A stretch of DNA of 12,207 nucleotides, from contig CALBUD010000037.1 of assembly GCA_937968065.1 (NCBI GenBank), positions 1-12,207 on the forward strand, read 5' to 3'. The notes beneath the pieces are model-generated. The model searched no databases and was not told the DNA's origin. It saw nothing but the letters and a program-made list of their open reading frames with translations. Origin of the DNA: Candidatus Iainarchaeum sp. Lineage in GTDB: Archaea > Iainarchaeota > Iainarchaeia > Iainarchaeales > CSSED10-239. A program made the translations under genes and the position numbers. Positions 2,409 through 12,207 of the stretch are shown here, piece by piece (within the stretch, counting starts at the first letter, position 1; the number at the start of each line of letters is the position of its first letter).

Positions 2409-2600
2409 ATGCATGATTTAAAAAGAATCTTAAAAGAAGAAAAAGCACAAATATCTGCTGAAATGATTATTTTAATTGCTGCAATAATTGCAATAGTTCT
2501 TGTTGTTGTAACTCAACTTCAAAAAACAACAACAAAAGCAAATAAAACTGTTGACAAAAAAGCAGATGATGTTTTTAAGCAGATTGAAAAAATAAATTAA
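2409..2600 (+). CDS. Short class III signal peptide pilin (DUF361/UPF0333-type, QxSxExxxL motif)
   Basis: 63 aa. A charged leader MHDLKRILKEEKA is followed by QISAEMIIL (Q+1, S+3, E+5, L+9) and a roughly 20-residue hydrophobic helix, then a short polar tail. This size and motif match the short EppA-processed pilins of methanococci. A consensus TATA (TTTAAATA, 2370-2377) lies about 30 nt upstream. Confidence 0.75.
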   Translation: MHDLKRILKEEKAQISAEMIILIAAIIAIVLVVVTQLQKTTTKANKTVDKKADDVFKQIEKIN

Positions 2601-2614
2601 AGAAGTAATCTTCT

Positions 2615-3010
2615 GTGAATCAAAAAGCACAAGTTAGTTTAGAATATATATTGATTGCACTCGCTATTGTCGTGGTTCTTTCATTAATTATTATGCAAGC
2701 AACTATTCTTTATTCTAAAAATATAAATATTATTGATAATAGAGAGCTTAAAAATACTTTTGAAAAAATTCAAGCAAATTTAGATATTATAGAACTTTTA
2801 GAAAATTATATAGAAGAAATAAATGTATATCCTGAAAAAACTTGGTATTTTGAAAAAATTAATGAAAAAGAAATAAAAATATTTAATGAAAATAAAGAAT
2901 ATTTAATAAATAGTAATAAACCTATTATTTTAAATTTTAGAGAAATAAAAAAAGAAGAAATAATAATTATTAAAAAAGAAAATAATAAGATATATATTGA
3001 ATTAAAATGA
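2615..3010 (+). CDS. Pilin-like protein with class III signal peptide (DUF361-type)
   Basis: GTG start at 2615. The N-terminus MNQKA|QVSLEYILIALAIVVVLSLII repeats the QxSxE pattern of the upstream gene. The rest is a 100-aa N/K/E/I-rich domain with no recognisable motif. Confidence 0.6.
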   Translation: MNQKAQVSLEYILIALAIVVVLSLIIMQATILYSKNINIIDNRELKNTFEKIQANLDIIELLENYIEEINVYPEKTWYFEKINEKEIKIFNENKEYLINSNKPIILNFREIKKEEIIIIKKENNKIYIELK

Positions 3011-3525
3011 ACTTAAATAACTTTTTATCAAAAATTTTATTTATTGGTATAACTATACATGAAATTGCACATGCTTTTGCATGCATTATTCTTGGTGTAA
3101 AAATAAGAAAAGTTAAACTATTAAGTTTTACAGACGGATATGTGGTGCATGATGAGTCAAGATCTTATAAAAATATCATAATCTCTATCTTTCCTTTTTT
3201 TTTTAATATTTTAGTTGCTTTTTTATGTATACTGTTATTAAAAAAAGAGCTTTTAATCATATATAAAGTAATAATTGCATGGTTTGCTATATCAGCTTTG
3301 TTTTTCTCAATACCTTCAAGACAAGATGCAAATAATGTGTTTGCATCTATTAAAAAAAGCTATAGATGGAATCAATCTTTATTAAAATGGCTATATAAGA
3401 TCATATTATTACCATTAACTTTATTTATTTTAATCCTTTCTTGGTTATTTAAAGTATTAGATCAGTCTTTTTTAACAAGATTAGTATTAATTGCCATTTG
3501 GGTTTATGTATTAGTTATTTTTTAA
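3007..3525 (+). CDS. Small polytopic membrane zinc-metalloprotease-like protein (HExxH; M50/site-2-protease-like or DUF3267-like)
   Basis: 172 aa with 4-5 predicted TM helices by eye. HEIAH (nt 3058-3072, residues 18-22) sits in TM1 and is followed by ACIILGVKIRKVKLLSF.DG, resembling the HExxH..G.k....l.p.GG start of M50 proteases. A later IPSRQDANNV segment is a possible degenerate PxxLDG third-ligand motif. The start overlaps the upstream stop as ATGA (3007-3010). Confidence 0.6.
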   Translation: MNLNNFLSKILFIGITIHEIAHAFACIILGVKIRKVKLLSFTDGYVVHDESRSYKNIIISIFPFFFNILVAFLCILLLKKELLIIYKVIIAWFAISALFFSIPSRQDANNVFASIKKSYRWNQSLLKWLYKIILLPLTLFILILSWLFKVLDQSFLTRLVLIAIWVYVLVIF

Positions 3526-5461: not shown

Positions 5462-5502
5462 AAATCTATAATGTAGGGTTTAATTTAAAAAGATTGTTTT
5501 TT

Positions 5503-5519
5503 CTCGGCCACGAGGGGGG
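5503..5519. promoter_or_regulatory. Candidate origin-recognition-box-like element: dyad CTCG-GCCA-CGAG followed by a G-run
   Basis: This is the only GC-rich island in the window (ctcggccacgagggggg). It lies 42-60 nt upstream of the orc1/cdc6 ATG, just distal to a TATA-like TTTTTAAATT on the minus strand. The dyad-plus-G-string layout resembles archaeal ORB elements, but only one copy is present. Confidence 0.3.
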
Positions 5520-5822
5520 TCTAAAAAAGAACCTAAGTTATAAAGACATATTTATTTTACAATTAAGTTTTTTTAAAAAATATAAATGGTGATAAAATAT
5601 GCAAATAATATATAGAAGAGAACTTTCAAGATTTCAAACCACTTTTTTAAATAAAGTTAAAAACACTTTATTAAAAAGAATGGAGATTGGGTATATGACA
5701 AAACCTCATAATTATATGCTTATAGATATTCTAAGTGAAATTGATTCTAGGAAATGTTCATAATAGTTGAAATTATTAAAAATAATAGATATATATACTT
5801 TATAGCTCTATAATATACATAT

Positions 5823-6323
5823 ATGGCAATAAACCAAAAGGCCTTTGCATCTATAATTGTACTTTTGTTTTTATTATTTTTTTCATTTATTATTCTCGAG
5901 AATAAGAGAACAGACATTTCTGATTTTATTATTATTAAGCAGGCTGAAACTAAAAAAGAGAGCATTTATTTAAATTTTGAAACAAACATTAAAAATACTT
6001 TAAATAATTGTGAAGAAGATCCTTTAATAAATAATCTTGAAGTTATTAAAGAGGCTAATAATTTTATAAATAATAGTGACTCTAATTTTTTTATTAAAAA
6101 TATTATTTCTCAAAAAGAAGAAGAAGTTAATATAACATATTTAACTGAAATAATCAAAGTTATTGTATATAAACCTTCAAGAAATATAGTTGTTAAAGAA
6201 GTACATATAACAAACGGATTTTTAAAAAATAAAGTTTTAGGATATACCCTAAATACTAGTAATTACAAAACCACTTTTTTATTTCCAGAAAATTATAGTT
6301 TAAAAAAGGTGATTTTTTGTTAA
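5823..6323 (+). CDS. Pilin-like / class III signal peptide-like membrane-anchored protein, function unknown
   Basis: 166 aa. MAINQKA|FASIIVLLFLLFFSFIIL gives a short basic leader, a small residue, then a roughly 20-aa hydrophobic helix. The rest is N/K/I-rich with 2 Cys. The TATA-like ATATATAC (5791-5798) is spaced for a leaderless transcript. Confidence 0.5.
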   Translation: MAINQKAFASIIVLLFLLFFSFIILENKRTDISDFIIIKQAETKKESIYLNFETNIKNTLNNCEEDPLINNLEVIKEANNFINNSDSNFFIKNIISQKEEEVNITYLTEIIKVIVYKPSRNIVVKEVHITNGFLKNKVLGYTLNTSNYKTTFLFPENYSLKKVIFC

Positions 6324-6559
6324 ATAAAAAAGGAGTGGTATCTATTGAGTTTATTTTTTCATTATTAATTATAATTGTAATTTTGTATTTATTAATCCTT
6401 GTTAACTTAAATTTTAAAAATAAGTTATCTGAAGAAATAAATTATGAAGAATATAATTTTGAAGTTTGTTTTATAAAAGAAATAATTCTCAAAAATAATA
6501 ATGGAGAAATATTAAATGATTTCTGCAAAATCAAAAAAAGGACAAATAATTATAATTGA
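6317..6559 (+). CDS. Small pilin-like protein (KKG|VVSIE class III signal peptide)
   Basis: 80 aa with a TTG start at 6317, preceded by SD AGGTGAT (6307-6313). MLNKKG|VVSIEFIFSLLIIIVILYLLILV has S+3 and E+5 as in the DUF361 motif. Overlaps the upstream gene by 7 nt. Confidence 0.55.
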   Translation: MLNKKGVVSIEFIFSLLIIIVILYLLILVNLNFKNKLSEEINYEEYNFEVCFIKEIILKNNNGEILNDFCKIKKRTNNYN

Positions 6560-6929
6560 TATTTTATTATTTTTAATAATAATTTTATTAATTATTTCAA
6601 TACAAACAAAAATAATTAGAAACTATAAAGAAAATTTATCTTTTCAAGAAAAAGAAATTAATTTTTTAAAAGAAGATTTTTTAATAGAAAATTACTTGCT
6701 TGATTGTAATTACTTAGGTTATTTAGATAAAGATACTAAAAAATGTTATAAAAACAAAATAGAAATTAAAAACATTGATAAAATAGATTACTCAATTTTT
6801 TGTAAATTAAAAATAAATGAAAATATAATTTTTTATATTGAAAATAAAAATAATAAAAAAATATATAAAAGAGCAGCTGTTTTTGAAGACAAATTTACTA
6901 TATTAGAGGTTGAGTTTTGTGAAAAATAA
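6516..6929 (+). CDS. Small pilin-like protein (KKG|QIIIID class III signal peptide)
   Basis: 137 aa. MISAKSKKG|QIIIIDILLFLIIILLIISI. GGAG (6503-6506) lies 9 nt upstream of the ATG. Contains 4 Cys. Overlaps the upstream ORF by 44 nt. Confidence 0.55.
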   Translation: MISAKSKKGQIIIIDILLFLIIILLIISIQTKIIRNYKENLSFQEKEINFLKEDFLIENYLLDCNYLGYLDKDTKKCYKNKIEIKNIDKIDYSIFCKLKINENIIFYIENKNNKKIYKRAAVFEDKFTILEVEFCEK

Positions 6930-7281
6930 AGGAATCATTTTTACAATTGACGGAATTATAGCACTTACATTTATAGCTTTATTTTCAATGATTTTATTTG
7001 TGCCAACCTATGACAACACAAAAGAAATTGAAAAAATTTTAATTAATAACAGAATTTCAGATCTTTTAATAACTGCCCAATTACTTGAAATTGAAAACTC
7101 AAATATTTTAGAACAAAAATTTCAATTACTTTTAGAAGATAAATCAGGATTTATTATTATTAATAATAAAAAAATAGAAATTAATAACAGCCATGAAAAA
7201 ACAAGATTAATTTCACAAAACATAAGATATATTAATAGTTCTAATAAAGAAATATATATTGAAATAGGAGTGTATTATTAA
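6919..7281 (+). CDS. Small pilin-like protein (KNKG|IIFTID class III signal peptide)
   Basis: The ORF track starts at TTG 6910. I prefer GTG 6919 (MKNKG|IIFTIDGIIALTFIALFSMILFV) because GAGGT (6906-6910) is then 8 nt upstream. Either start overlaps the upstream gene. Confidence 0.5.
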   Translation: MKNKGIIFTIDGIIALTFIALFSMILFVPTYDNTKEIEKILINNRISDLLITAQLLEIENSNILEQKFQLLLEDKSGFIIINNKKIEINNSHEKTRLISQNIRYINSSNKEIYIEIGVYY

Positions 7282-8012: not shown

Positions 8013-8283
8013 AAAATATTGTGAGAAATATAGAAAAATTCTAGAAAAAGCAATAAAAACAATAAAAATAAACATAAAAAACGAATCTTTTTTAAAAGAT
8101 GTTTCTAAAGATTATCTTGATATGGCTAAAAATTATTTATCTGATGGAAAGTTTTTAGAAAATAAAAAAGATTATGCAAGAGCACTAGCATCTTACTCAT
8201 ATGCCTATGGATGGATAGATGCAGGAGTTAGAATTGGTTTATTTTATGGAATTGATAATAAAATGTTTACTGTGTACAAATAA
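7996..8283 (+). CDS. DUF357-like small archaeal protein
   Basis: 95 aa, helical. The C-terminal ARALASYSYAYGWIDAGVRIGL matches my recollection of the conserved A.a..YA.GWlDAg.rlG block of the archaea-specific DUF357 family. Overlaps the dphB 3' end by 17 nt. Confidence 0.55.
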   Translation: MNIECKKYCEKYRKILEKAIKTIKINIKNESFLKDVSKDYLDMAKNYLSDGKFLENKKDYARALASYSYAYGWIDAGVRIGLFYGIDNKMFTVYK

Positions 8284-8285
8284 AT

Positions 8286-8792
8286 GTGATTAAAATGAAA
8301 GGAATTTTAAAAAACAGATTTATTGAAATCTATAGCAACAATTTAAAATCTCAATTAATAAACAAAGGATTTGGAAATAAACAAGACAATTATTTAGAAA
8401 TAGATTTTTTTGAAGGGCTTTTTCTTCTTGAAAAAAATAAAATGAAAATATATCTCGATAATAAAATAATTTTAAAAAAAGACTTTATTAGTTATTCTGA
8501 AAAAAAAATAAAAAATTTCAAAGAAAAATATATTGTTTATAAAGATTTTAAAGAAAAAGGCTATATAATTAAAGATGGTGCTATTTTTGGATTTGATTTT
8601 AGAATTTATGAAGGAAAAACTAAAAAACACGAACACACCAAATATGTTGTAGATGTTAAAAAAACACATAAAGATGAGATGTCACAGATAATCAAATCAG
8701 AAAGACTTGCAAACAGTATTAATGCAGAATATGTTATTGCAATTATTGATATGGATCAAAAAATAATAAAAATAAAAATAAAAAGAATTTAA
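8286..8792 (+). CDS. endA: tRNA-splicing endonuclease (tRNA-intron lyase) subunit
   Basis: Aligns by eye to M. jannaschii EndA. YIVYKDFKEKGYIIKDGAIFGFDFRIYEG...HEHTKYVV...RLANSINAEYVIAIID corresponds to YLVYKDLRTRGYIVKTGLKYGADFRLYERG...KEHSVYLV...RVAHSVRKKLLIAIVD. GTG start at 8286, with an alternative ATG at 8295. Confidence 0.85.
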   Translation: MIKMKGILKNRFIEIYSNNLKSQLINKGFGNKQDNYLEIDFFEGLFLLEKNKMKIYLDNKIILKKDFISYSEKKIKNFKEKYIVYKDFKEKGYIIKDGAIFGFDFRIYEGKTKKHEHTKYVVDVKKTHKDEMSQIIKSERLANSINAEYVIAIIDMDQKIIKIKIKRI

Positions 8793-9232
8793 GAACATCT
8801 TGTTTCCCAATAATTAATAGGACACATAGTGTTTCTTATAGTTAATGTTATTGGAGATTTACCTTCATAATCTTCAATTACAAAAAAATCAGATTCTCCT
8901 ATTAAAAGACCTCTTGAGTCTAAAACATCGATGTTTGTCAAATCAATTATATTATCTGCATCTTTTAAAACAACATTAAAATTATAATCTGGTTTAAAAT
9001 TTACTTTTCCAGAATTTACAATACTTACTTGGAATTCATTTTCTAAATTATCATAATCACAAGAAATAAAACTTAAATAAATATTTGTACAATCTTTATC
9101 AATTGCGTTATCAGCTTCAGTTGTATTTTTAGTTATAAAATTAGATCCCCAAGACAAGATAATTGCAATTAATGCTAAAGAAACCACAATTAAAAGAATT
9201 GTTGCAATTATTGGGCTTATTGCTTTTTTCAT
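8789..9232 (-). CDS. Archaeal type IV pilin (archaellin-N-terminal-type class III signal peptide), paralog 1
   Basis: 147 aa. MKKA|ISPIIATILLIVVSLALIAIILSWG matches the A.SPVIATvLLi archaeal pilin/archaellin N-terminal domain. Has 4 Cys, ending CP-x8-CS. Confidence 0.85.
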   Translation of the reverse strand: MKKAISPIIATILLIVVSLALIAIILSWGSNFITKNTTEADNAIDKDCTNIYLSFISCDYDNLENEFQVSIVNSGKVNFKPDYNFNVVLKDADNIIDLTNIDVLDSRGLLIGESDFFVIEDYEGKSPITLTIRNTMCPINYWETRCS

Positions 9233-9257
9233 AAATTTTCACAAGTTTATTATTATT

Positions 9258-9295
9258 AAAAAAAGAAAAGAAATCTTTTTTTAAAAAAAGATTTC
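9258..9295 (-). terminator. Perfect 26-bp palindrome followed by a T-tract downstream of the middle pilin gene
   Basis: GAAATCTTTTTTTAAAAAAAGATTTC (9270-9295) is its own reverse complement. On the minus strand it is followed by TTTTCTTTTTTT (9269-9258). It lies 13 nt after the stop of the 9308..9790 gene. Confidence 0.55.
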
Positions 9296-9307
9296 AATTA
9301 TTTCTAT

Positions 9308-9790
9308 TTAGTTACAATTTGTTTTTGTAGCAACTGCATCTGATGGACAATAACTGGAAATTATTTTAACATCAAATCTAGATGGGTTTGTTGTACCAGG
9401 AAGATCTGCTTGAGCAATACTTACTTGGTGCATTTGTCCAGGAGTTAAATCAGAAGCAAAATCAGCTCCATAGTCACTTAAATTACTATTTAATTCACTT
9501 TCAGAATCTGTAAGGTTTGTTAAGTGAACTAAGAAATCATCTCCTGAAGAGATTGTTTTAGATCCAATGTTTTCTATATAAAATGTTAAATTTCCGTCTG
9601 CATCAACAGAACAGTTAGTTATTTGTACAGCTGAACCCATACATTCTGCATTCACAATATCACTAGTGTCACTTAAACTACTAGTTGTGAATGATTTTCC
9701 CCAAGCAACAACAATTGCAATTAACGCAACTGCAACAACAATTAAAAGAATAGTTGCTATTAACGGAGATATTGCTTTTTTCATTTTCAT
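9308..9790 (-). CDS. Archaeal type IV pilin, paralog 2 (candidate major pilin)
   Basis: 160 aa. MKMKKA|ISPLIATILLIVVAVALIAIVVAWG with an S/T/D/G/A-rich body and 4 Cys, ending CP-x10-CN. SD AGGTGAT (9802-9796) lies 5 nt upstream of the ATG. An alternative ATG is at 9784. Confidence 0.85.
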   Translation of the reverse strand: MKMKKAISPLIATILLIVVAVALIAIVVAWGKSFTTSSLSDTSDIVNAECMGSAVQITNCSVDADGNLTFYIENIGSKTISSGDDFLVHLTNLTDSESELNSNLSDYGADFASDLTPGQMHQVSIAQADLPGTTNPSRFDVKIISSYCPSDAVATKTNCN

Positions 9791-9827
9791 TTTTTATCAC
9801 CTTATTTAATTCATAATATCTTTTTTA

Positions 9828-10298
9828 TTAATTACATCTTGATACAAATGATAATTTATCAGGACAATTAACAACATGAACTTGAACTCTTTTTAAAGGA
9901 GTTTCAAGAGCATCAAAATCTTCATTTTCATTTAATAATGAATCTAAAGACATTGCATTTCCAATAAAGTTTGGACTTATTGAAGTACTTGCTATTTGAT
10001 TATCAGCAGCAATAACTGTTACAATTAAGTTTTGATCAATAGTTATTGTTGATCTATCAAAAACAAACAAACCACTAAACCCTGTTTCAGAATTATAACT
10101 ACATCCTGAATCAATATATATATTGACATTACTACAATCAATCCAGTCAGAAGATGTTTCTGAAACACTTGTTGTTGTATCTCTAAAATTTTGAGAAGAC
10201 CAAGAATATAATATACCTGCTAAAGATAAAGCAACAGCTACTAAAAGAATTGTTGCAATTAATGGAGATAATGCTTTTTTTTTATTTTTTTGAAACAT
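9828..10298 (-). CDS. Archaeal type IV pilin, paralog 3
   Basis: 156 aa. MFQKNKKKA|LSPLIATILLVAVALSLAGILYSW. Has 4 Cys, ending CP-x9-CN. Confidence 0.85.
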   Translation of the reverse strand: MFQKNKKKALSPLIATILLVAVALSLAGILYSWSSQNFRDTTTSVSETSSDWIDCSNVNIYIDSGCSYNSETGFSGLFVFDRSTITIDQNLIVTVIAADNQIASTSISPNFIGNAMSLDSLLNENEDFDALETPLKRVQVHVVNCPDKLSFVSRCN

Positions 10299-10343
10299 AC
10301 CTAATTTTTCTTTTTATTTTATATTATATTCTTAAATTTTATA

Positions 10344-10374
10344 TTAATATATAAACTATAAGATATATAAACCT
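10344..10374 (-). promoter_or_regulatory. Tandem TATA-box motifs upstream of the pilin genes
   Basis: The minus strand reads AGGTTTATATAT-CTTAT-AGTTTATATAT. That gives two copies of the consensus TTTATATA (10371-10364 and 10355-10348), 50-66 nt upstream of the ATG at 10298. Confidence 0.4.
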
Positions 10375-10409
10375 ATCTTCTTAAATAAACAAACCTTATT
10401 TTTAAAAAA

Positions 10410-11261
10410 TCACAAAAATATTGCTGAAACTAAAACATATAATGGTACTGAAACACCAACTAAAATTATTGAGTGTCTTACACCAGCAATGGCATTGTTT
10501 TCTGAAATTAAACCAATTGTTGGTCCTGCAAATAAACCTTGAATAACTATTAAATATAAGAAATATTTATTAAAATTTACATCAGACATTCCTGAAGATG
10601 CTTCTGCTCCATCTCCACTTAGGGAAATAGTACTTGAACCTAACATTGGAAGAAAGACTATTTGAATTATTAAAATAATTGCAATAAAAACAAAGAACAT
10701 AAAATAACTTGAAAAGACTGTAGAAAAAGTTTTTGATTTTCTTTCATCAACCATATCATTTAATGTTTTAACATAATCTGAAATTGAAGCAAATATTTTA
10801 ATAATATTTCCACCAACTTTATTTGTTTCTGAGATGATTTGAGTAACTTGTTTAAAGACAGGACTATCAATTTCGCCAAAAACTTCATTTAAAGCAACAT
10901 CAAAAGGAATTCCTATTTTTATTTGTGCAGCAACTCTTTTTATTGGAACATTAAGATGACCATAATCGTGTTTTGAAGCAACCTCAACAGCAGTTACAAT
11001 ATTCATACCACTTTGTAAAAGATCTTTTAAATCATCTAAAAAAACATATAAATTTTTTTCATAAGATTTAATTCTTGCAGTATATAATCTAGATGCAAGA
11101 CCTATTGATAAAAGAAATGGAAATATTGAAAAAATTAAATATTTAGTATTCATTAATAAAACAAAAAAGATTATTGAACCTACAAGACCATAAACTATAT
11201 AGTCTACAAAATATCTTTGTTTTTCAGATAAATTAATACCCAATTCTTTTTTTAAATCCAT
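10410..11261 (-). CDS. Type IV pilus platform protein, T2SS-F domain, equivalent to the C-terminal half of FlaJ/PilC (TadC/EpdK-like)
   Basis: 283 aa. N-terminal TM helices, then a cytoplasmic helical T2SSF-like block FLDDLKDLLQSGMNIVTAVEVASKHDYGHL...IKIGIPFDVALNEVF...ISETNKVGGNI, then C-terminal TM helices. Confidence 0.85.
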   Translation of the reverse strand: MDLKKELGINLSEKQRYFVDYIVYGLVGSIIFFVLLMNTKYLIFSIFPFLLSIGLASRLYTARIKSYEKNLYVFLDDLKDLLQSGMNIVTAVEVASKHDYGHLNVPIKRVAAQIKIGIPFDVALNEVFGEIDSPVFKQVTQIISETNKVGGNIIKIFASISDYVKTLNDMVDERKSKTFSTVFSSYFMFFVFIAIILIIQIVFLPMLGSSTISLSGDGAEASSGMSDVNFNKYFLYLIVIQGLFAGPTIGLISENNAIAGVRHSIILVGVSVPLYVLVSAIFL

Positions 11262-11267
11262 TTTTTA

Positions 11268-12137
11268 TCAACCACTAACTAAGTTTAAAATTGCAATAAA
11301 TCCAATATTAATAATTGGAACTAAAAGAAAAACACCAATTTGTAAAACTGTACCTATACCTAACCCTGCAATTCCACCACCAACCATTCCTAGAAGCATA
11401 ATTCCAGAAAATAAAAATAATGGTCCTGCAACAACAATTGCAGAATAAATATCACCAAATGTTTCTGCTTTTTGATTTTGGTTGTTTAATAATAAATTAT
11501 ATTGAAATCTTGCATGTTCTGCTTTTTTTTTCATAAACTCTGGTAAAGAACCACCTGCTTCTATGCTTGATTTTAATTCTAATAAAAATTTTTTAAGTTC
11601 AAAAGAAGGTGTTTTTCTTGCAGCAATATCAATTGCTTCTAAAAGAGAAATACCTAGAACATTTACATAATATAAAATTTTTGAAAATTCTTTATCTAAA
11701 TATTGACTTTTATCTTTAACGGTTTTTGTTGAAAAAATTGAAATTGGAGGGGCTCCTGATTCTGCAACACTTGACATTCCGATAATTGCTAAAGGAAGAG
11801 TATTTTTTATGTTTGAAACTTTAGAGCCTATTAATAAATAAGGGTTAACTATACTATAACCAATAAATGCAATAAAAATAGATAGAGATGCAATAATTAC
11901 TAGCTTTAAACCAATTACTTCTGGAACTAAAATACTTGCAACAAAACCAAATAATAAAAATAATAAAAAAATAAATACAGCAAAAAATATTTTTTTTGAA
12001 AAATAAAAATCAATATCTTCAGTTATGTCTGCTTGATCTAAAGCTTCTTCGAAATCATCTGAACGTAAGTTTCTAGTAATGGGTATAAATAAACTATAAA
12101 GTTTTTCTTCAAAACTTTTTTTCTTTTTTGGAGTCAT
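11268..12137 (-). CDS. Type IV pilus platform protein, T2SS-F domain, equivalent to the N-terminal half of FlaJ/PilC (TadB/EpdJ-like)
   Basis: 289 aa. LPLAIIGMSSVAESGAPPISIF...LGISLLEAIDIAARKTPSFELKKFLLELKSSIEAGGSLPEFM matches the tPS...fl..l...i.sGG.l..f signature of the first FlaJ repeat. Flanked by TM helices. Confidence 0.85.
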   Translation of the reverse strand: MTPKKKKSFEEKLYSLFIPITRNLRSDDFEEALDQADITEDIDFYFSKKIFFAVFIFLLFLLFGFVASILVPEVIGLKLVIIASLSIFIAFIGYSIVNPYLLIGSKVSNIKNTLPLAIIGMSSVAESGAPPISIFSTKTVKDKSQYLDKEFSKILYYVNVLGISLLEAIDIAARKTPSFELKKFLLELKSSIEAGGSLPEFMKKKAEHARFQYNLLLNNQNQKAETFGDIYSAIVVAGPLFLFSGIMLLGMVGGGIAGLGIGTVLQIGVFLLVPIINIGFIAILNLVSG

Positions 12138-12139
12138 AC

Positions 12140-12207
12140 TTAAATATATTTATTATTTTTAATAAAACTTTTTACATCCTTGTCAAATTTATCATACATC
12201 AAAGAAC
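12140..12207 (-). CDS. 3' end (21 codons) of an upstream ORF running off the window, possibly the pilus assembly ATPase by synteny only
   Basis: The minus strand reads ...SLMYDKFDKDVKSFIKNNKYI-TAA. The stop (12142-12140) ends 2 nt before the ATG at 12137. No motif is visible in 21 residues. ATPase identity is a guess from the usual ATPase-platform gene order. Confidence 0.3.
   Translation of the reverse strand, partial: SLMYDKFDKDVKSFIKNNKYI

Follow-up and report, generated by a model that had tools for sequence, protein, structure and literature searches.

Type IV filament loci with two single-domain platform genes have been described from several lineages. The Epd pilus, exemplified by Methanococcus maripaludis EpdJ/EpdK with the EpdL ATPase, EppA and the short EpdE, and the bacterial Tad/Flp system (TadA/CpaF, TadB, TadC) both have this architecture (Denise 2019, PMC6668835). 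Many euryarchaeal loci of clade 2 also have two tadC-like genes, as does clade 4B, where PilA pilins accompany them (Makarova 2016, PMC4858521), and two platform genes are reported for System 1, which includes DPANN members, and for some DPANN 4A loci (Sivabalasarma and Albers, 2026 preprint). In addition, ATPase/TadC modules have been documented to operate with trans-encoded pilins (Makarova 2016, PMC4858521). Here we analyzed the complete 12,207-bp contig CALBUD010000037.1 (hereafter the window), which has a GC content of ∼22% and comes from a Forterrea-like Iainarchaeote of the DPANN, a relative of Candidatus (Ca.) Forterrea multitransposorum. On its minus strand, at 8789-12207, the window encodes a split platform followed by three pilin paralogs. 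We conclude that this locus very probably encodes the platform and pilins of an archaeal type IV pilus of the conventional, adhesive kind, the ATPase and the prepilin peptidase being supplied in trans. Split platforms have precedents in other archaea, and the module is an archaeal type IV pilus of familiar type.

The five genes were found at the coordinates given in the original prediction, which had been made from the sequence alone, and the region 8789-12207 contains no competing plus-strand open reading frame (ORF) of at least 50 aa, no tRNA and no Rfam match. By means of a GTDB scan and local annotation, relatives of the locus were divided into two sets. Group A consists of ∼30 loci, including the window, with 56-100% identity, and Group B, at 37-42% identity, comprises other Ca. 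Iainarchaeum metagenome-assembled genomes, the locus L006 and loci recovered by the motif scan described below. The gene order is kept in ∼30 related genomes, indicating that the five genes are not chance ORFs. Among named genomes, the complete Ca. Forterrea multitransposorum chromosome (Iainarchaeota, DPANN) is the closest, with 84% identity for the C-terminal platform half.

The platform is encoded by two adjacent genes, each specifying a single-domain T2SSF protein. The N-half (11268-12137, minus strand) encodes a polytopic membrane protein of the FlaJ/TadC family of 289 aa, which matches Pfam T2SSF (PF00482) with 39.1 bits (E = 8.6e-10, against a cutoff of 25.2) and is 80% identical to its Ca. 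Forterrea ortholog. The C-half (10410-11261, minus strand) begins 6 nt past the N-half stop codon and encodes a TadB-like protein of 283 aa, which matches the same family with 62.2 bits (E = 6e-17). The N-half aligns with ArlJ model positions 10-241 of 555 and the C-half with ArlJ positions 190-383 of 465, and the two halves are paralogous (hhalign probability 95%). Exact-match look-ups with the two platform proteins had no result, and a PDB sequence search with the platform halves gave marginal PilC matches only. An exhaustive profile search for C-half relatives returned 6,900 representatives; among the best 150 of these, most are single-domain proteins of 260-340 aa. Five proteins exceeding 500 aa were checked, and only P0308 contains two T2SSF domains. 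This fused 641-aa protein is collinear with the order N-half > C-half, and the N-half matches its N-terminal domain. An unsplit protein in sister genomes, which the original prediction had named as evidence against its reading, was not found: all 65 homologs are 164-293 aa in length, and thus no sister genome has an unsplit platform. The same prediction took the split to be a hallmark of Tad and Epd, which is overstated, as split platforms are reported in clade 2, in clades 4B and 4A and in DPANN, and most of the best 150 relatives are single-domain. The platform genes are the best conserved of the neighborhood, with 80-84% identity to Forterrea compared to 59-71% for the housekeeping neighbors, which argues for a functional system.

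Downstream of the platform lie the three pilin genes, all on the minus strand: pilin 3 (9828-10298, 156 aa), pilin 2 (9308-9790, 160 aa) and pilin 1 (8789-9232, 147 aa). Their class III signal peptides read KKKA↓LSPLIATILL, KKA↓ISPLIATILL and KKA↓ISPIIATILL, respectively, where the arrow marks the processing site, and all three proteins pass the 20-bit cutoff of TIGR02537, the archaellin/type IV pilin N-terminal domain, with scores of 35.9, 26.8 and 24.5 bits. The cleavage contexts, KKA↓IS and KKA↓LS, fit PibD-type sites, for which UpsA KAIS and Aap RALS are tabulated (PMC4371748), and not Epd sites such as RAQI and KGQV. Thus, the archaellin-type N-termini assigned to these pilins from the sequence are confirmed, and the T2SSF matches, the TIGR02537 matches and the conserved order together bear out the description of a split platform with three pilin paralogs as a type IV filament module. 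Further family matches are weaker: pilin 3, which contains four conserved cysteines, has a weak UpsA match (4.9e-8), pilin 2 matches Arch_flagellin at 4e-5 with 24.4 bits, under the cutoff of 29.5, and pilin 1 matches Pilin_N at 0.01. The paralogs share 28-33% pairwise identity, or 17-26% when the N-terminal helix is excluded, and throughout the clade each belongs to a separate, conserved orthologous group. Within these groups the motif KK[AG][ILV]SP[LI]IATILL and four cysteines are invariant. Pilin 2, which is present in one to three copies across Group A, evolves fastest of the three, with 54% identity to its Forterrea ortholog; pilin 3 is 72% identical to its own. An AlphaFold2 model of pilin 2 (low confidence, with a predicted local distance difference test score, pLDDT, of 66) shows an N-terminal helix and a β-sandwich, and its top Foldseek matches are Sulfolobus acidocaldarius FlaG/FlaF and archaellins.

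The gene order in Group A is rigid. It runs GTPase > N-half > C-half > pilin 3 > pilin 2 (in its one to three copies) > pilin 1. The genes that come next are on the opposite strand and comprise those for tRNA endonuclease, DUF357 and diphthine synthase and the four minor-pilin-like ORFs. Further on come cdc6 on the forward strand and then, on the opposite strand, PCNA, an M50B-like gene and genes for 131-aa and 63-aa class III proteins. In syntenic relatives the gene upstream of the platform encodes an MMR_HSR1+TGS (DRG-type) GTPase, or is a divergent ORF of no assigned function, and no T2SSE ATPase lies within 10 kb; the ATPase that the original prediction looked for in this position is therefore not there, an outcome that the prediction had itself named as counting against its reading. 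The "ORF tail (possibly the ATPase)" that it placed at the edge of the contig likewise did not hold up. This stretch has only 21 open codons (SLMYDKFDKDVKSFIKNNKYI*) in 12143-12205, and the 70 nt concerned (12138-12207, minus strand) align with a conserved non-coding spacer 5′ of the N-half in the closest genomes (L011-L013), including a TATA-like block at ∼12168-12181. We also considered the tail as the end of the upstream GTPase, but the GTPase C-terminus of relatives is unlike the 21 codons. Given the short reading frame, the spacer alignment and the GTPase mismatch, the tail is neither a gene end nor an ATPase.

Group B provides the link to an ATPase. A metagenome DNA scan for WLPxxxRxGFGPPD recovered 10 loci, eight of them with an ATPase; in six of the eight the platform genes follow directly, one (L046) is cut off at the ATPase end and one (L045), where the N-half overlaps the ATPase start, is differently arranged. 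The prevailing order in Group B is thus ATPase > N-half > C-half. PilA-type pilins homologous to pilin 1 and pilin 2 lie a few kb upstream in Group B, and the same four-cysteine pattern is found there, including in the pilin 1 homologs of ATPase-linked loci of sister Iainarchaeota. These loci also hold minor-pilin-like genes with KGQ/KAQ sites and genes for large fn3 surface proteins. The presence of the split pair next to the ATPase in Group B indicates that the split platform is ancestral in the phylum and that the ATPase linkage was lost in the Forterrea-like clade. The Iainarchaeota pilus ATPases (L006, 5809-8529; L029-L043) are 700-900 aa long and carry an N-terminal extension of 250-450 aa that is low-complexity or coiled-coil; an extended ATPase N-terminal region has been assigned to System 2 (Sivabalasarma and Albers, 2026 preprint). 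The sister-lineage enzymes score 307-439 bits to Archaeoglobus fulgidus GspE (2OAP), 243-340 bits to FlaI and 126-195 bits to CpaF, with a weak PilB3_C match in addition. As a separate observation, NWLPQV[AS]RxGFGPPD is a lineage-specific insertion in the Iainarchaeota ATPases; none of the other retrieved DPANN enzymes has it.

The module would work as follows. The two adjacent T2SSF proteins would jointly stand in for the two-domain FlaJ/PilC, being collinear with its domains. The three pilins would be made as preproteins with class III signal peptides and cut after KK-A by an A24-family prepilin peptidase encoded elsewhere. The platform would then pull the hydrophobic N-terminal helices from the membrane and polymerize the filament, powered by a VirB11/GspE-type hexameric ATPase that is also encoded elsewhere. 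The two conserved cysteine pairs probably form disulfides that stabilize the β-sandwich head domain. The three paralogs are old and are more likely to be specialized, as major and accessory or tip subunits, than interchangeable. Such a filament would likely serve to attach the cell to surfaces or to a host, and the parallels with Nanoarchaeota, Nanohaloarchaeota and Saccharibacteria make a role in host attachment plausible.

Several results weigh against this interpretation, and most of them concern the ATPase. No T2SSE ATPase is encoded in the window or within 10 kb in ∼30 Group A relatives, and it is unusual for an archaeal type IV pilus to have its platform uncoupled from the ATPase. Motif scan and protein searches located ATPases of sister clades only, and not the Forterrea-like clade's own enzyme. 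Specifically, a protein search with the sister ATPase of L006 gave seven matches swamped by low-complexity words, and a core-alignment search gave 7,957 nearly equidistant DPANN ATPases, none with the GFGPPD motif. Nor was an A24-family prepilin peptidase found in the window, within 10 kb in any close relative or in the 20-kb flanks; an M50-like ORF upstream in relatives was considered for this role and rejected, as it is a true Peptidase_M50. Furthermore, pilus assembly here is predicted from the genes, and the pilin 2 model is of low confidence, its fold matches including generic immunoglobulin-like domains. On the other side, the complete Forterrea genome is reported to hold a "secretion-related ATPase" with internal assembly-confounding repeats (PMC5905446), and an ATPase acting in trans is therefore likely.

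The alternative with most to recommend it, along the lines of the original prediction, is an Epd-like (System 1), Tad-related pilus in which the 63-aa QxSxE/Flp-like pilin encoded at 2409-2600 is the major subunit and the PilA-type proteins are accessory or form a second type of filament on the same machinery. The two single-domain platform genes are the Epd/Tad architecture (PMC6668835), System 1 has been reported from DPANN members (2026 preprint), and the conserved 63-aa KAQ↓ISAEM pilin and the further Q+1 proteins in the window fit the RAQI and KGQV sites. Moreover, the C-half is clearly TadB-like. In a profile comparison with one bacterial Tad locus, hhalign matched it to the TadB-position gene at 97% probability (E = 6e-11) and to the TadC-position gene at 2%, while the N-half gave an ambiguous result against the genes of that locus. 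TadB is described as resembling the C-terminal platform domain (Denise 2019, PMC6668835). The TadB-like half is nevertheless second in order here, and the halves are thus reversed relative to the bacterial order TadB > TadC. The ATPase gene lies ahead of the platform genes in the sister loci but after them in Epd (PMC6668835), and the sister-lineage ATPase is nearer GspE than CpaF, its long N-terminal extension and weak PilB3_C match being System 2 features. The pilins adjacent to the platform, like those beside the ATPase in sister loci, are PilA-type. Genes similar to FlaH, KaiC, TadZ or EppA/TadV are absent from the vicinity, and no FlaH/TadZ-like gene is present in the sister ATPase loci. 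With split platforms known outside System 1 as well (PMC4858521), we regard an Epd-like pilus as unlikely. The subtype depends on the component by which it is judged, System 1/4A-like by the platform and System 2-like by the ATPase and the pilins. The original prediction saw here a locus mixing features of two lineages and pilins lacking the Epd-type QxSxE N-terminus. The second point holds inside 8789-12207 but not for the window as a whole, which has KAQ↓ISAEM, KAQ↓VSLEY and KG↓VVSIEF at 2409-3010 and 5823-7281. The first is not supported, since the sister ATPase loci also pair PilA-type pilins with Q+1 minor-pilin-like genes; the mixture therefore looks like the normal make-up of this lineage's pilus and not like a chimera.

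A degenerate or reduced archaellum, with a split FlaJ/ArlJ and archaellins, is suggested by the Joint Genome Institute label of the homologs ("flagellar protein FlaJ"), by ArlJ models being the best NCBIfam matches, and by the weak Arch_flagellin match and FlaF/FlaG-like fold of pilin 2. The scores speak strongly against it, as the ArlJ models reach 24-73 bits against cutoffs of 400-570, ArlF and ArlG reach 18-20 bits against 110, and Arch_flagellin, as given above, also falls short. ArlH, ArlI, ArlF, ArlG, ArlCDE and ArlX are absent from the window and from 20 kb around the locus in relatives, the sister ATPase is nearer GspE than FlaI, and the subunits are 147-160 aa long with cysteine pairs, making an archaellum extremely improbable. 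A relic or repurposed module that no longer builds a pilus, whether a short pseudopilus, a bindosome-like surface anchor or a decaying locus, would be consistent with the loss of the ATPase from the locus in the entire Forterrea-like clade and with the functionalized type IV filament machineries proposed in the 2026 preprint. Pilin 2 has bindosome BasA/BasC matches as well, but these are weak (E = 0.04-0.8) and far under the cutoff. Since ∼30 genomes keep all five ORFs intact, the platform genes are better conserved than the adjoining housekeeping genes, the signal-peptide motif and four cysteines are invariant, and the complete Forterrea genome reportedly encodes a secretion-related ATPase (PMC5905446), there is little chance that the module is a relic.

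The conventional adhesion pilus that we favor is similar in several respects to the clade 2/System 2 pili, represented by Haloferax volcanii PilB3-PilC3 with PilA1-6 and by the A. fulgidus GspE-type loci. Shared features are several PilA/Pilin_N-type paralogs, PibD-type sites, a sister-lineage ATPase that is closest to A. fulgidus GspE (2OAP) and has the N-terminal extension and weak PilB3_C match, and pilins that can be encoded apart from the ATPase/TadC module. The Iainarchaeote locus differs in that its host is a DPANN archaeon, the platform is always split, and it is the ATPase that is set apart, the platform remaining beside the pilins, whereas ATPase and TadC are usually together in clade 2; the ATPase likeness is derived from scores. 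The Epd pilus has in common with the window the two single-domain platform genes, the Q+1 class III signal peptides, a ∼60-aa pilin without a globular domain and pilin genes spread over several loci. It differs in that the pilins adjacent to the platform here are PibD-type proteins of 147-160 aa with a globular domain and an A↓I/L site, EppA and a FlaH/KaiC-like gene were not found, and the sister-locus ATPase precedes the platforms and resembles GspE/FlaI over CpaF. With bacterial Tad/Flp the locus shares two single-domain T2SSF proteins, the C-half being homologous to the TadB-position protein. Unlike in Tad, which is ordered TadA > TadB > TadC, the halves are reversed, the Flp-only pilin set, TadV, TadZ, secretin and TadE/F/G are not present, and the scores of the ATPase relatives are much lower with CpaF than with their archaeal counterparts. 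A DPANN host is shared with the 4A loci (Sivabalasarma and Albers 2026) and the cluster 2 DPANN loci (Hamm et al. 2024, PMC11291902), and the sister loci L006 and L036 resemble them in having a minimal set of ATPase, two platforms, pilin and a large adhesin-like protein. Iainarchaeota are unmentioned in those reports, however, the coiled-coil attachment proteins of the Hamm loci (PMC11291902) were not seen here, and in the Forterrea-like clade the ATPase lies outside the locus.

A minimal-genome lineage of tiny, probably symbiotic DPANN archaea thus keeps a strongly conserved type IV pilus, for which attachment to surfaces or to a host is a reasonable role to propose. The labels "FlaJ" and "TadC" that the source annotations give to these platform genes are misleading. 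Moreover, with the ATPase outside the locus, detection tools that need an ATPase beside the platform would probably miss the system in this clade. The combination of a split with Tad-opposite order and an ATPase linkage that was lost in one clade and kept in its sisters is of specialist evolutionary interest. More tentatively, the Forterrea-like clade may have a module permanently uncoupled from its ATPase, situated amid housekeeping genes beside the probable replication origin (see below) and after a DRG-type GTPase, with an N-half > C-half order opposite to that of Tad, a proposal that we consider possible but doubtful. If true, it would be a natural case of a platform recruiting a distantly encoded, possibly shared ATPase. 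If the split arose apart from the Epd/Tad fission, platform fission would have occurred more than once.

The window contains additional class III genes, all on the plus strand. At 2409-3525, a 63-aa Flp/EpdE-like short pilin (KAQ↓ISAEM; 2409-2600, 6 kb from the three pilins), a 131-aa KAQ↓VSLEY protein and an M50B-like HExxH polytopic membrane protein are encoded. This trio matches PF04021 Class_IIIsignal (5.2e-6 and 1.1e-4), Flp1_like (3e-3) and Peptidase_M50B (1.5e-6), and it is kept in L004, L012, L014, L016 and L026; its link to the split platform is putative. In M. maripaludis, the list from a transposon screen for transformation places a "Peptidase family M50" gene next to epd genes (PMC10133366); any tie between that gene and the trio is speculative. 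At 5823-7281, four overlapping small ORFs of 166, 80, 137 and 123 aa have class-III-like N-termini (KG↓VVSIEF, KKGQ↓IIIID and NKG↓IIFTID). Three same-strand housekeeping genes separate them from the main pilin genes, and their position is kept in all Group A loci. These ORFs are probably a minor-pilin set or operon of the same neighborhood; as they have no Pfam match, their association with the pilus is inferred.

The non-coding parts of the module were also examined. The platform and pilin genes are separated by a 111-nt spacer (10299-10409, minus strand) with two TTTATATA-type elements, read from the sequence. The spacer may be a separate pilin promoter, for which such elements are weak evidence in a 22% GC genome, and a sigma-70 promoter scan was uninformative (25 sites compared to 24.9 expected). 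Pilin 2 has a GGTGA ribosome-binding site ahead of its start, and just 3′ of its stop codon RNA folding predicts a hairpin (9258-9295, minus strand) with an 11-bp A/T stem at 9270-9295, followed by a T-run at 9258-9269. The hairpin has a folding energy of −10.6 kcal/mol (z = −2.4 versus shuffles), and with its T-run it looks like a terminator. Pilin 1 and the tRNA-splicing endonuclease gene converge, and since their 3′ ends overlap by 4 nt (8789-8792), there is no space for a terminator between them.

The tRNA endonuclease gene converges on a pilin gene in the ATPase-less Forterrea-like loci (8286-9232 in the window), and some ATPase-linked loci have the arrangement pilin > < endonuclease > ATPase > N-half (L044, 150-4725; L046, 1061-7709). 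The adjacency in both settings indicates that the type IV pilus-endonuclease neighborhood predates the rearrangement that removed the ATPase. On the other side of the module, a Lys-rich ORF of 219-245 aa, with no Pfam match, lies divergently between the GTPase and the N-half (∼8277-9014, minus strand, in L001, L003, L011 and L025) and is confined to the closest Forterrea-like genomes.

The 360-bp spacer between cdc6 and the minor-pilin ORFs (5462-5822) is probably a replication-origin region. It contains a unique GC-rich island, TCGGCCACGAGGGGGGTC, at 5504-5521, for which no chance match is expected at a genome GC content of 22%. The other related loci do not keep this exact motif, which recurs only in L047, an unrelated locus of high GC. 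The complete Forterrea chromosome is linearized inside the equivalent cdc6 spacer (L011 ends ∼390 bp past mp166). The spacer also contains a 54-aa ORF (5599-5763, plus strand) without a family match; L001, L004 and L009 likewise have a small ORF call (56-64 aa) at this position.

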